Source: Mariprofundaceae bacterium (GTDB lineage: Bacteria > Pseudomonadota > Zetaproteobacteria > Mariprofundales > Mariprofundaceae). From it: a DNA stretch of 35,263 nucleotides. Position numbers and translations under genes: made by a program. Location of the stretch: assembly GCA_027035825.1 (NCBI GenBank), contig JALVTX010000144.1:1-35263 (forward strand), given 5' to 3'. Under the pieces are notes generated by a model. That model saw only the letters and a list, made by a program, of their open reading frames with translations. It was not told the origin of the DNA and did no database searches. This document shows, piece after piece, positions 21,069 to 25,176 of this stretch. The stretch's first letter is position 1. Each line of letters begins with the position of its first letter.

Positions 21069-23225
21069 ATGGTGGAACGAACCTACAGTGAACAATGGCA
21101 TCGGGTGGAGCAGCTCAGGCCCCGGCTGGCCCCGCATGTTCATGTTGGAAGACAGCGGTTGCGAGGTCGGGAGTGGTTTGTCCTTCATGACGAGACGACG
21201 GGCAAATCCTTTCGCATGTCGCCGGAGGCATTTGAGGTGGTTCGTCGTTTCAACGGTCGCCGGAGCCTGGCCGACATTTGGGAGGGATTGCGATCGCCGG
21301 ACAATTCCGAGGACAGCGTAACATCCCAAGACGAGGTCATCCGCCTGCTGGGCCAGCTGCACAAGGCCGACATGCTGATCGTGGATGCCGCCGGCAATAT
21401 CACGGAACGCGTCCATCGGCGCCGGAAGCGAAAGCGGGACAAATGGGTTTCGCAACTGGCCAATCCGCTCGCCCTGCGGATTCCGCTTTTCGACCCTGAC
21501 CGGCTGTTGGGGCGCTTGATGTCCTTCTCCAGGCCATTGCTGGGCTGGGCGGGTCTTGCGGCATGGTGCGTCGCCATGGCGTGGCTCATTGTCATGGCCG
21601 GGGTGCATTGGGATGAATTGACCAGGAATATTGGCGATCGAATCCTTTCGGGCCAGAACATCATGCTGATGGCGGTTTGTTATCCACTCCTCAAGCTGGT
21701 TCATGAATTGGGACATGGCCTTTTGGTGAAGAAATGTGGGGGAGAGGTGCATGTGCTTGGCGTCATGCTGCTGGTCATGATGCCCGTTCCATATGTGGAT
21801 GCGTCGGCCGCTTCCGCCTTTCGTCTTGCCCGGCAGCGGGCGCTCGTGGGGTTGGCCGGCGTGATGGCGGAAACATGGATTGCGGCGGGCGCCATGTGGG
21901 TGTGGCTTCATGTGTCCGGCGGCGTCGTGCATGCGGCCGCCTACACCATCATGCTGTTGGTTCTGGTTTCCTCCTTGCTGTTCAACCTGAATCCCTTGCT
22001 TCGGTTTGATGCCTACTATGTCGTGAGCGATCTGCTTGGCATGCCGAACCTGGCGCAAAGGGCGAATGCCTATGCGGGATACCTGATGCGCCGCTATTTG
22101 TTCGGCGTTCGAAGCGCGCGAACTCCGGCCACGGGGCCGGGGGAGGAGGCATGGCTTCTGCTCTATGCGGTCGCATCGTTCGCATACCGCGTTTTTCTCT
22201 GCGGAGCGCTGACATATCTTCTTGCCGGGAAATATTTCGTGTTCGGCCTTGTATTGGCGGCATGGCTCGTGGTTGTCATGTTTCTGTTCCCCCTTGCGCG
22301 GTCTCTGAGGAATCTCTGGCTTGATCCGGAGATGCAGAAAAGGCGGGGAAAGGCGTTATCCATGCTGGGCGGCGGGGCTCTGGCCGGGTTTGTCGTTTTT
22401 TTCTGGATACCGTTTCCTCATTGGATGGTCGCGCAGGGCGTGATCTGGCCGCCCGAGGGCAGCAGATTGGTGGCGGGGGCCTCCGGCTTTGTCCGGGCAT
22501 TGCACGTCAAGGACGGGGAACATGTCCAAAGAGGCCAGTCCATTCTGGATATGGTCGCTCCCGAATTGAGGGCGCGTCAACGCATTCTGAAAGCGCAGCT
22601 TGAGGCGATGGCCGTTGAGCATAGGGACTCCATGCTGGGTGACAGGCTTGTCCACGCAAAGACCGCCCAGGAAATTAATCACTTGCGGGATCGCTTGCGC
22701 GATATCAATGACAGGATCTCCGCCTTGACGATTCTCAGCCGTCAATCAGGGGTGATGTATTTCAGGCTGCCATGGCGAGATTTGCCGGGACGTTATCTGC
22801 CCAAGGGAGCGTTGATTGGTCATGTGCTGGGCGCGGACGAGGCGCCGTTGGTTCGGGTGCTTGTTTCGCATGATCGAATCGAGGACTTTCTTGTCGGACT
22901 GAAAGGGGTGGAAGTGAGGCTTCCCCACGCCGAGGCGACATATCCGGCGCGCCTGATTCGCCTTCATCCCGAGGCATTGCGCGAAATTCCATCGCTTGCC
23001 TTGACCAGGGAAGGAGGCGGGGAAATCGATGCCGATATGCGCGACAAGACGCGTCCCGTCGCGGTGGAGCCCCTGTTTCAGCTGGACGTGAGCTACCCCG
23101 AGGCCGCCGGGTTTGCGCGCATCGGCGAGCGGGCGTACGTCAAGTTCCGGTTTGTTGACGCTCCGCTCGGGCAACGACTCCTGAAGTGGGTGCGAAGGAC
23201 GTTCCTGGGGCGTTCGCATGTCTAG
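21069..23225 (+). CDS. Fusion protein: cytoplasmic N-domain, ~9-TM M50 (site-2-protease-type) zinc metalloprotease, periplasmic HlyD/MFP adaptor
   Basis: 718 aa, ATG preceded by GAGGGAG. HExxH inside a TM helix (LKLVHELGHGLLVKK; HELGH at nt 21702-21716). Second M50 motif with the third Zn ligand (FNLNPLLRFDAYYVVSDLLG, nt 21990-22016). I count about nine hydrophobic helices. The C-terminal part has MFP hallmarks (VAGASGFVRALHVKDGEHVQRGQSILDM, coiled coil ...RARQRILKAQLEAMAVE...DRLRDINDRISAL, then ILSRQSGVMYF). Confidence 0.82.
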   Translation: MVERTYSEQWHRVEQLRPRLAPHVHVGRQRLRGREWFVLHDETTGKSFRMSPEAFEVVRRFNGRRSLADIWEGLRSPDNSEDSVTSQDEVIRLLGQLHKADMLIVDAAGNITERVHRRRKRKRDKWVSQLANPLALRIPLFDPDRLLGRLMSFSRPLLGWAGLAAWCVAMAWLIVMAGVHWDELTRNIGDRILSGQNIMLMAVCYPLLKLVHELGHGLLVKKCGGEVHVLGVMLLVMMPVPYVDASAASAFRLARQRALVGLAGVMAETWIAAGAMWVWLHVSGGVVHAAAYTIMLLVLVSSLLFNLNPLLRFDAYYVVSDLLGMPNLAQRANAYAGYLMRRYLFGVRSARTPATGPGEEAWLLLYAVASFAYRVFLCGALTYLLAGKYFVFGLVLAAWLVVVMFLFPLARSLRNLWLDPEMQKRRGKALSMLGGGALAGFVVFFWIPFPHWMVAQGVIWPPEGSRLVAGASGFVRALHVKDGEHVQRGQSILDMVAPELRARQRILKAQLEAMAVEHRDSMLGDRLVHAKTAQEINHLRDRLRDINDRISALTILSRQSGVMYFRLPWRDLPGRYLPKGALIGHVLGADEAPLVRVLVSHDRIEDFLVGLKGVEVRLPHAEATYPARLIRLHPEALREIPSLALTREGGGEIDADMRDKTRPVAVEPLFQLDVSYPEAAGFARIGERAYVKFRFVDAPLGQRLLKWVRRTFLGRSHV

Positions 23226-25176
23226 GGATGGCTCCCTGCTTGCGCGTGGTTATGGCGAACGGCCCGAGCGGGAAGCGGAGATTGACCTGGTGGCGATGCA
23301 CCTTCGACGGTTGACATGGATGCCGCGCCCCATGATGCGACGCAGGATGCTTGAATTCCCCGAACGGGTCAGCGCGGCCGCGAAAAAGGAAGGAGTCCAA
23401 GCGCTTTCTTCCAGGGAGCTGGCGGAAAGGTTGAAGAGCTTTCGGCTCAAATTGCGGCGACGAGGAGTCCGCGAGGAGCTTTTGCCAACGGGATTTGCCC
23501 TGATTCAGGAAGTCTCCGCGCGGGTGCTGGGAATGAGGCACCGGGATGTCCAACTGATGGCTGGCTGGGCGCTTGTTCATGGCGCGCTCGCCGAGGTGGA
23601 GACAGGCGAGGGCAAAACGCTGGCGGCGACGCTGGCGGCGGGCGTGGCCGCCTGGGCGGGATTGCGCGTGCATGTCATCACCTCGAACGACTATCTGGCC
23701 GAGCGTGATGCAACTCATTTGGCTCCATTGTATGATGCCATCGGTCTTAAGGCCGGATGCGTGCTGCACGGGATTCCGCGCGCCCGCCGCCGCCAGGCTT
23801 ACGCGTGCGAAATAACGTACGCGTCGGCGAAGGAGCTTGCGTTTGATTATCTCCGTGACAGGCTGGCCTTGGGCGGCAATGGGGCGCGCCGAAGGCATGC
23901 CCGGCGCTGCGGTCAGGGAACCGTCATGCGGGGGCTGGTGTATGGCATCGTGGATGAGGCGGACGATATTTTGATCGACGAGGCGCGGACGCCGCTCATC
24001 ATTTCGGAGGGAGGGGCGTCGGAAGACGAGGCGGATATTCGCGGAGCGCTTGAATTTGCGCGCCGGCTTGAATCGAGACGCCATTTTCGCATGGATGCGG
24101 ATCGCCACGTTGAGTTAACCTCCGAGGGAGAGCGGATGCTGGATCAATGGACGCGGACAACCTACCGCGGAAGCAAGCCTCATCGGTTCATGGAGTTGGC
24201 GGTTCAGGCGGTGGCGGCGCTTCATGGATTTAAGCGGGACAAGGATTATATCGTCCGCGATGGCTCGATTGTCATCGTGGATGAGCATTCGGGTCGCGGC
24301 ATGGCGGATCGTTCCTGGAGCCGGGGGCTCCACCAGCTCATCGAGGCCAAGGAAGGCTGTGAACTGAGCGAGGCCATGCGTCCTCGGGTTCAGAGCACAT
24401 ACCAGGAGTTTTTCCGTCGTTACCTCAATCTGTGCGGCATGACGGGCACGGCTTGGGAAGTGCGTCGCGAGCTGTGGATGTTCTATCGCCTCCCCGTTCT
24501 TCGCGTGCCGCCGCATTGTCCCAGCCGATGCGTCGGCATGCCGCCGAGGGTGTTCATGGACATGAAGGGCAAGGAGCAGTCGGTGGTCATGCGGGTGGAG
24601 GAAGTGCAGCGTCTGGGGCGGCCGGTTCTGGTGGGCACGGCTTCGGTGAAGTCCTCGGAGCGGCTTGCGGCGGCCATGGCGCAATGCGGAATCAAATGCA
24701 GGGTATTGAATGCGCGCCAGGATGCCGACGAGGCCGAGGTGGTGAAGTGCGCGGGGAGGCATGATGCCGTGACGGTGGCGACGAGCATGGCGGGGAGAGG
24801 GACGGACATTCCGCTTGATGACGTCGCGCGCGAGAATGGCGGGCTGCATGTGATTCTGACGGAGATGCATGATTCATCCCGGGTGGATCGGCAACTGGCG
24901 GGCCGGGCGGCGCGACATGGGGATCCTGGCAGTTATGAAATGATGCTTTCGCTTGAAGACGATATTTGGATGAATGCGTCCGGCACCAGTGTTCTAAGGC
25001 CTGTAATCGTATTCCTCATGCGAGGCATTCCGTGGGGGGGGCGAATCGTCTTGCGTCTCATGAGATATTTGCAGAAAAGGATTGAAAAGCGGCATTTTCG
25101 CATTCGATGCAGACTTGTCAGGCATCAGAAGACATTGGGCGATTTGCTTTCATTTTCGTGGGAGGAAGCCAGATGA
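23218..25176 (+). CDS. SecA-like DEAD-motor ATPase, C-terminally truncated relative to housekeeping SecA (652 aa)
   Basis: Motifs align with E. coli SecA as I recall it: VLGMRHRDVQL, Walker A EVETGEGKTLAATL, VITSNDYLAERD, ITYASAKELAFDYLRD, Walker B/DEAD IVDEADDILIDEARTPLIISEG, a PPXD-like insert with DKDYIVRDGSIVIVDEHSGRGMADRSWSRGLHQLIEAKEG, then CGMTGTA, PVLVGTASV, ATSMAGRGTDI and GGLHVILTEMHDSSRVDRQLAGRAARHGDPGSYEMMLSLEDD. The ORF ends ~75 aa later. Its start overlaps the M50 gene by 8 nt (an internal start is possible) and its stop overlaps the next ATG as ATGA. Confidence 0.85.
   Translation: MSRDGSLLARGYGERPEREAEIDLVAMHLRRLTWMPRPMMRRRMLEFPERVSAAAKKEGVQALSSRELAERLKSFRLKLRRRGVREELLPTGFALIQEVSARVLGMRHRDVQLMAGWALVHGALAEVETGEGKTLAATLAAGVAAWAGLRVHVITSNDYLAERDATHLAPLYDAIGLKAGCVLHGIPRARRRQAYACEITYASAKELAFDYLRDRLALGGNGARRRHARRCGQGTVMRGLVYGIVDEADDILIDEARTPLIISEGGASEDEADIRGALEFARRLESRRHFRMDADRHVELTSEGERMLDQWTRTTYRGSKPHRFMELAVQAVAALHGFKRDKDYIVRDGSIVIVDEHSGRGMADRSWSRGLHQLIEAKEGCELSEAMRPRVQSTYQEFFRRYLNLCGMTGTAWEVRRELWMFYRLPVLRVPPHCPSRCVGMPPRVFMDMKGKEQSVVMRVEEVQRLGRPVLVGTASVKSSERLAAAMAQCGIKCRVLNARQDADEAEVVKCAGRHDAVTVATSMAGRGTDIPLDDVARENGGLHVILTEMHDSSRVDRQLAGRAARHGDPGSYEMMLSLEDDIWMNASGTSVLRPVIVFLMRGIPWGGRIVLRLMRYLQKRIEKRHFRIRCRLVRHQKTLGDLLSFSWEEAR

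Follow-up and report, generated by a model that had tools for sequence, protein, structure and literature searches.

The locus and its genes

We focus here on a short SecA-like ATPase and its gene neighborhood in a stretch of 35,263 nucleotides from a Mariprofundaceae bacterium (Zetaproteobacteria; assembly GCA_027035825.1, contig JALVTX010000144.1, positions 1 to 35,263 of the forward strand), the whole of which we refer to as the window. The genes run in the order ffh, a hybrid kinase, a LuxR-type regulator on the reverse strand, a TolC-family channel, a giant protein, a DUF3467 protein, a GAF domain joined to a membrane fusion protein (MFP) domain (GAF-MFP), a fusion of PqqD-like, M50 and MFP domains (M50-MFP), the short SecA, a small MFP and rpsP-rimM-trmD, with dnaK further downstream. 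The genes on which the argument turns are the following, with protein lengths in amino acids (aa).

4999..6351, + strand: TolC-family outer-membrane channel, 450 aa (TIGR01844)
6348..18830, + strand: giant protein and putative cargo, 4160 aa (LEPR-XLL, DUF4347, RTX)
18871..19212, + strand: DUF3467 protein, 113 aa, between the giant gene and the module described below (Pfam)
19239..21059, + strand: GAF-MFP, 606 aa (GAF domain at 174-303, transmembrane segment at ~343-363, periplasmic HlyD-type adaptor)
21069..23225, + strand: PqqD-M50-MFP fusion (M50-MFP), 718 aa (Pfam, profiles, AlphaFold2 (AF2) model, Foldseek)
23218..25176, + strand: short SecA-like ATPase, 652 aa (intact open reading frame, Pfam, NCBIfam, structure alignment)
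25173..25943, + strand: small periplasmic MFP/adaptor, 256 aa (signal-like segment at the N-terminus; gene start overlapping the short SecA stop)

The cluster is tightly packed, its genes overlapping by 4 or 8 nt or otherwise lying no more than 40 nt apart, and the tolC stop overlaps the start of the giant gene (ATGA). The TolC-family protein scores 234.6 bits with TIGR01844 (cut-off 225). Three proteins in the window carry an HlyD-type MFP domain; one of them, GAF-MFP, has a cytoplasmic N-terminal region containing the GAF domain and a single predicted transmembrane segment. Between ffh and rpsP, the window has no gene for an ATP-binding cassette (ABC) transporter, and none is present in the annotated plasmid loci.

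A SecA motor that stops inside the scaffold helix

The short SecA consists of a family-specific N-terminal extension, nucleotide-binding domain 1 (NBD1), the preprotein cross-linking domain (PPXD), NBD2 and about the first three quarters of the scaffold helix. An earlier note on this DNA, made from the sequence alone, had described the SecA motor motifs as intact, and every one that it quoted is located in the 652-aa reading frame: ETGEGKTL at residues 128-135, DEADDILIDEARTPLIIS at 246-263, MTGTA at 408-412, SMAGRGTDI at 523-531, GGLHVILTEMHDSSRVDRQLAGRAARHGDPGS at 541-572 and LSLEDD at 576-581. The PPXD-sized insert that it had noticed is matched by Pfam SecA_PP_bind at 277-376 (81 bits), next to matches to SecA_DEAD at 54-420 (298 bits) and to P-loop_SecA (155 bits). 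The N-terminal extension carries YGERPER in the window protein, the family consensus being YPER. SecA_SW, which represents the wing and scaffold, has no Pfam match in the protein.

In the alignment to E. coli SecA (2vda_A), residues 56-534 correspond to chain positions 23-508 and residues 535-642 to positions 538-646; at residue level, LQKRIEKRHFRIRCRL pairs with a 16-residue E. coli stretch. The stop lies 71 aa past LSLEDD, at about E. coli residue 656, and since the alignment reaches residue ~642, equivalent to E. coli 646, the protein ends inside the long scaffold helix. The wing domain, the two-helix finger and the C-terminal tail are all unencoded, in agreement with the end of homology that the earlier note had placed in this helix. 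Both gene ends also overlap their neighbors as it had stated, the start sharing 8 nt with the upstream M50-MFP gene (ATGTCTAG) and the stop sharing 4 nt with the downstream ATG (ATGA).

The protein thus resembles E. coli SecA (901 aa) in its DEAD motor, its PPXD and the beginning of its scaffold helix, with ~39–40% identity over the common region. E. coli SecA, on the other hand, has a wing, a two-helix finger, a C-terminal linker and a zinc tail, as well as a different N-terminus. In established SecA structures, most of the polypeptide clamp is built from the DEAD motor together with the preprotein-binding domain. Judged by the missing two-helix finger, wing and tail, the short SecA is plausibly unable to use SecYEG. 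Nearly the same domain content is found in N68, a fragment of E. coli SecA comprising the DEAD motor and PPXD, which was reportedly engineered by Karamanou et al. in 1999 and is said to have a deregulated ATPase and no translocation activity; the window protein, by contrast, is a conserved natural protein with terminal motifs of its own.

The curated models for SecA proteins are likewise not reached. Against the housekeeping models TIGR00963 and NF009538, the protein scores 517.6 bits (cut-off 800) and 528.3 bits (cut-off 814), covering the housekeeping model only to about position 491 of 814. With the SecA2 models, the scores are 422.8 bits against a cut-off of 930 (TIGR03714), 413.1 against 725 (TIGR04221), 481.6 against 1085 (TIGR04397) and 347.2 against 1100 (NF012136).

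Shortness as a family trait

Among 5.8 billion proteins, the 120 best homologues are 576–693 aa long and 44–57% identical to the window protein, whose identity to any other sequence found is at most 57%; SecA_SW is absent from all 120. In an exhaustive search of 1.84 billion representatives of clusters at 50% identity, ~145 of the 150 best are 600–725 aa long, and canonical SecAs with SecA_SW (P0439, P0508) are rare exceptions in this top 150, a 783-aa one appearing at ~414 bits. The Walker A GEGKT, DEAD, GRGTD and arginine motifs are unchanging across 38 aligned short SecAs, and the same alignment contains the family-specific N-terminal YPER and a conserved C-terminal end, LAFSGRxE. In loci from ~70 species, this C-terminus is conserved and fixed in position, with the reading frame ending exactly four residues past the equivalent of window residue 647. 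The shortening is a trait of the family and not a product of chance or decay.

In a crude neighbor-joining tree, the short family stands apart from the E. coli and S. meliloti SecAs; P0439, a 1240-aa protein with SecA_SW, falls inside it, and we therefore do not claim that the short family is monophyletic. Ten short-family members share only 38–46% identity with the canonical Sinorhizobium and E. coli SecAs, and 40–64% with one another across classes. Accessory plasmids with family genes occur in Rhizobium, Mesorhizobium, Methylosinus and Rhodobacteraceae. This plasmid location, the low identity to canonical SecA and a coexistence with canonical SecA reported in 2015 (see below) provide indirect evidence that the short SecA is an accessory protein beside the canonical one.

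Some further observations concern individual family members. The short SecAs of a Bradyrhizobium (L001, Alphaproteobacteria) and a Pseudomonas (L080, Gammaproteobacteria) are 64% identical, well above the 40–50% typical of the family, and this sequence identity would fit a lateral transfer of the module. Rosetta-stone fusions joining the short SecA to its partners were considered and rejected, as each of the long outliers (P0439, P0424, P0508) is either a canonical SecA or an artefact. P0424, with 4930 aa, combines several segments of the SecA_DEAD/P-loop type with five HTH_8 domains of the Fis type and is probably an artefact of gene calling or assembly. Database names for short SecAs vary between 'prepilin peptidase', 'DEAD/DEAH box helicase', 'preprotein translocase subunit SecA' and 'hypothetical protein', according to a survey of annotations that drew on L088 (NZ_AP022333.1), L089 (NZ_CP088148.1) and lists of homologue names.

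A conserved module and its partner proteins

The short SecA gene belongs to a module with the order GAF-MFP, ~715-aa M50-MFP, short SecA and small MFP. The module is present in all seven contigs bearing short SecA homologues (L001-L007), and its order is kept in nearly all of the 80 species loci retrieved via the M50-MFP protein, which has at least 594 species representatives. These 80 loci cover Alpha-, Beta- and Gammaproteobacteria, Desulfobacterota, Nitrospirota, Acidobacteriota, Rokubacteria and others, and cultured carriers are found among strains of Pseudomonas, Vibrio, Bradyrhizobium, Mesorhizobium, Methylosinus and Neptuniibacter. An accessory gene often lies beside the module, encoding DUF3467 in ~37 loci and SapC in ~21. 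The giant-DUF3467-module synteny of the window recurs on a Mesorhizobium plasmid and on a Methylosinus plasmid, where TolC follows; apart from this plasmid and the window, a few other loci have a linked TolC gene. Pfam annotation of the genes in the window and in L001-L007 reveals neither secY2 nor asp. As to the accessory genes themselves, DUF3467 and SapC-family genes mostly alternate, both being present in only three of the loci L001-L087, and in several Alphaproteobacteria SapC lies between the M50-MFP and SecA genes.

M50-MFP is composed of a PqqD-like peptide-binding domain (~1-131), a polytopic M50-like metalloprotease and a C-terminal periplasmic MFP domain. The protease part contains HELGH at 212-216 and NLNPLLRFD at 306-314, and the underlying HExxH and NxxPxxxxD motifs are invariant in the family; the adaptor domain has an alpha-hairpin at 498-551. 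In a confident AF2 model, with a predicted local distance difference test score (pLDDT) of 86, a beta/alpha domain at the N-terminus is followed by about eight membrane helices and by a C-terminal adaptor with the alpha-hairpin; the top Foldseek matches of the C-terminal part are MacA, MexA and EmrA. A profile of the family picks up PqqD (3g2b) over positions 18-101 and also HlyD from the HlyB/D complex (8dck/7sgr), and Pfam detects PqqD in 26 of 38 family members and Peptidase_M50 likewise in 26 of 38. The nearest curated kin of the M50 part are leader peptidases of ribosomally synthesized and post-translationally modified peptides (RiPPs), namely the daptide HExxH protease (144 bits) and YydH/LiaK, all below cut-off. 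In databases, M50-MFP proteins go by 'PqqD family protein', 'efflux RND transporter periplasmic adaptor subunit' or 'putative peptide zinc metalloprotease protein'.

Giant neighbors as candidate cargo

The giant protein of the window has a basic N-terminus with LEPR-XLL at residues 28-50 (...VFEPLEERLLLSADF; NF012209, 24.9 bits against a cut-off of 17), DUF4347 at 94-262 and RTX calcium-binding repeats at ~2700-2860 and ~3800-3920. Such neighbors are common: 33 of the 52 loci that can be evaluated on both sides have a same-strand reading frame of at least 1000 aa directly beside the module, a count that is too low because several giants fell outside the coordinates used. LEPR-XLL follows a basic stretch in each of the 15 repetitive giants with a visible N-terminus, among them one of 8848 aa on the Methylosinus plasmid pMSC49a and one of 10,518 aa on a Mesorhizobium ciceri plasmid. 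The LEPR leaders have no Sec-type hydrophobic core. RTX repeats are present in all four giants scanned, those of the window, Neptuniibacter, Vibrio and Pseudomonas. In the reverse direction, 29 metagenome loci anchored on DUF4347 had 6 kb or more of sequence upstream; the module was found there in 12 of them, and TolC, SapC or DUF3467 in three more.

Several features within the giants themselves are also recorded here. Six DUF4347 domains (alignment A5) share invariant HIISHGSDG and YGCN motifs, corresponding to H150/H154 and C197 in the window giant (6627-7133), and by their sequence these residues resemble a Cys-His protease-like dyad placed directly after the LEPR-XLL leader. Chain G of PDB entry 9qpe, a 'DUF4347 domain-containing protein', is a weak match (E 0.08), and the DUF4347 protein PA0256 of P. 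aeruginosa has been proposed to be an Hcp-dependent type VI effector (PMC8262886). At the other end, inspection by eye of window positions 18500-18830 and of the giants of L010, L014, L018, L019, L022, L026, L043, L046, L059 and L079 showed a hydrophobic-polar-Trp motif (IDW, VNW, ISW and the like) in the last ~5–25 residues of many giants. By the same inspection, several giants, many of them at DUF3467-type loci, carry 'AGxxGW' followed by a basic cluster ~50–70 residues before the end, and those of SapC-type loci tend to finish in '...DWS.R...L..LF'. These C-terminal motifs may be a signal matched to the accessory protein.

Prior description and comparison with known systems

The window protein belongs to a family that is already published. 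Under the name 'secondary SecA_DEAD domain proteins', Kamneva, Poudel & Ward (PLoS One 2015) reported proteins without the wing-scaffold domain in Gram-negative phyla, coexisting with canonical SecA (PMC4452313). Like the window protein, these have SecA_DEAD and PP_bind, with SecA_SW absent or fragmentary, and they occur in Proteobacteria, Nitrospirae and others beside the same neighbors, GAF/HlyD, Peptidase_M50/HlyD and HlyD/Biotin_lipoyl genes and at times an OEP (TolC) gene. The authors proposed that the ATPase had been recruited to a system resembling type I secretion, in which the M50 protein would be the pore, and stressed that the function was unknown; no substrate was named, and there was no mention of PqqD, DUF3467, SapC, DUF4347, LEPR-XLL or giant genes (PMC4452313). 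The earlier note's suggestion that an MFP- and M50-linked SecA in a TolC-bearing organism would be new therefore fails, because the same proteins, neighbors and idea were on record. Its view that the gene is wired to its operon neighbors, on the other hand, is upheld by the module order in nearly all of 87 loci and by a start codon that permits the 8-nt overlap with the M50-MFP gene at 54 of 79. No follow-up, experimental or other, came up in a citation search on the 2015 paper within the searched literature, and a search on DUF3467, DUF4347, LEPR-XLL and SapC together with SecA returned no functional study. What is new here is the adjacency of the giants, the LEPR-XLL leader on them, the RTX repeats in the four scanned and DUF3467 or SapC as a frequent accessory gene. 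In Chlorobium chlorochromatii, whose phylum is among those covered in 2015 (PMC4452313), one horizontally acquired 'secA', Cag_1676, is mentioned by the authors of a recent study (bioRxiv 10.64898/2026.03.19.712371), and the same system may handle the giant proteins of this organism.

Compared with better known systems, the module combines familiar parts in an unusual way. The housekeeping SecA gene stands alone, whereas that of the short SecA is encoded together with MFPs. The short SecA resembles SecA2 in its probable status as an extra copy of SecA, in its shortened C-terminal region and in a presumably dedicated set of substrates; SecA2, however, retains the scaffold and two-helix finger and works with SecYEG or SecY2, and the Gram-positive and mycobacterial SecA2 proteins differ from the short SecA in that the latter has diderm hosts and MFP/TolC partners. 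Type I systems (HlyB-HlyD-TolC, and LapBCE for giant RTX adhesins) likewise bring together MFP adaptors, TolC and an RTX giant in one operon. The module differs from them in having no ABC transporter, with a SecA-derived ATPase as the proposed source of energy, in an M50-like protease fused to an MFP, in its three different MFP proteins and in the conserved N-terminal LEPR-XLL leader on the candidate cargo.

A proposed export pathway

We consider it somewhat probable that the short SecA is the cytoplasmic ATP motor of a dedicated, type-I-like and TolC-dependent exporter for the upstream LEPR-XLL/DUF4347/RTX giant. In such a machine, the PqqD-like domain would recognize the basic LEPR-XLL leader, which the M50 active site may cleave. 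The short SecA would dock on the cytoplasmic face of M50-MFP and GAF-MFP in place of SecY, as hinted by the family-specific terminal motifs and the conserved gene overlap, and could thread the unfolded giant into an inner-membrane passage formed by the polytopic M50 protein. The periplasmic domains of the three MFPs would connect to TolC, the RTX repeats may help to make transport irreversible by their calcium-driven folding once outside the cell, and the GAF domain might gate or regulate the whole. The broader reading is one that we hold more tentatively, at a little under even: that this is a distinct trans-envelope pathway in at least ~600 species of several phyla, with a SecA-derived motor replacing the ABC transporter and PqqD-M50-MFP handling the LEPR-XLL leader, dedicated to the largest bacterial proteins known (2,000 to >10,000 aa).

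A number of points weigh against the proposed exporter. We know of no M50 or site-2 protease that serves as a polypeptide conduit, and the window cluster encodes no other inner-membrane channel. Roughly one module locus in three has no giant gene within 10 kb. In L008 and the DUF4347-linked L107, L123, L130, L136, L152 and L167, the module has no SecA gene within reach; those next to DUF4347 giants retain GAF-MFP, M50-MFP and the small MFP. It follows that the motor is encoded elsewhere or is not always required, and the SecA-less subtype may thus be energized in another way. An ABC transporter was considered as the substitute in L008, L136 and L152, and none was found. A role of DUF3467 as a SecB-like chaperone is unsupported as well: its AF2 model of four strands and a helix is weak (pLDDT 69) and without a significant Foldseek match in the PDB, a PDB sequence search came back empty, and hhalign gave a probability of 0.2% with an E. 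coli SecB sequence. Furthermore, the searched literature yielded neither a substrate nor an experiment for the module, and the M50, SecA_DEAD and HlyD genes of Methylobacterium extorquens AM1 are little or not expressed in exponential phase (PMC4452313).

Among other explanations, a SecA2-like motor that acts on the housekeeping SecYEG, moving the giant or components of the module to the periplasm with MFP and TolC as a second step, would fit the retention of NBD1, PPXD, NBD2 and part of the scaffold helix, the near full-length alignment of the short SecA to SecA and to C. difficile SecA2, and the reduced C-terminal regions that Gram-positive SecA2 proteins also have. We regard it as unlikely, since the two-helix finger, the wing and the C-terminal tail are missing, the first two of which are established to touch SecY and the substrate in canonical SecA, and since a family-specific extension takes the place of the canonical lipid-binding N-terminus. 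The lack of a Sec-type hydrophobic core in the LEPR-XLL leaders, the scores below every SecA2 cut-off and the strict coupling to M50-MFP, with a secY paralogue never adjoining at the loci surveyed, point the same way. Slightly less likely still is that the short SecA acts as an unfoldase supplying the M50 membrane protease for regulated proteolysis or signaling, with GAF as the sensor. The invariant M50 active-site residues, the sensory GAF domain and the two-component genes nearby in the window would suit this role, but three MFP domains with hairpins of the TolC-docking type, together with linked TolC genes, indicate transport across the envelope, and the adjoining RTX giants are typical extracellular proteins.

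Maturation and export of small RiPP-like peptides, to which the giants would be coincidental or secondary neighbors, is what the M50 part might suggest through its closest curated relatives, sub-threshold as these are; an N-terminal PqqD-like domain is moreover a classic RiPP recognition element, and radical SAM genes lie near two loci. It is nevertheless improbable to us, given that giants adjoin most loci and carry the LEPR-XLL leader wherever their N-termini are visible, that no conserved small precursor gene or modifying enzyme is shared across L001-L007, and that short peptides need no polypeptide motor of the SecA type. As for a decaying or recently truncated secA pseudogene, the deficit of ~250 aa relative to housekeeping SecA is the one feature in its favor, and this explanation is refuted by the common end point and C-terminal motif in ~70 species, by more than 140 diverse clusters of equal length, by the invariant catalytic residues and by the conserved, coupled gene overlaps. 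The earlier note had argued against decay in the same sense, and relatives of equally short length, with conserved catalytic residues and a fixed C-terminus, settle the matter.

Surroundings of the cluster

Two further genes of the island are candidate regulators only.

2514..4283, + strand: hybrid sensor histidine kinase, at the island edge
4285..4890, - strand: LuxR-type response regulator, ~201 aa from the ATG at 4890

The whole cluster (2514-25943) sits between ffh and rpsP-rimM-trmD, which are normally neighbors, and the island has a G+C content of 0.56–0.62 against ~0.68 in the flanks. The insertion site and the lower G+C suggest that the cluster was acquired horizontally. Scans for promoters and terminators gave nothing beyond the expectation from shuffled sequence except a plausible rpsP promoter. 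A 768-aa reading frame at 28321-30627 on the minus strand, antisense to dnaK (28552-30477, + strand), has a very strong match to Pfam 'NAD-GH', which we read not as a real gene but as a known artefact, the family having been derived from the opposite strand of Hsp70 genes.

Significance

Beyond the ABC-driven type I systems, little is understood of how bacteria export proteins of thousands to more than 10,000 residues that have no Sec signal. The short SecA remains of interest despite its earlier description, because the system is widespread and a concrete candidate cargo is now at hand; with the LEPR-XLL giants as a defined cargo class, a decade-old genomic curiosity becomes directly testable. 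If the proposed pathway is true, it would amount to secretion by a SecA motor without SecY, in which the SecA clamp would have been re-used on a different membrane partner.

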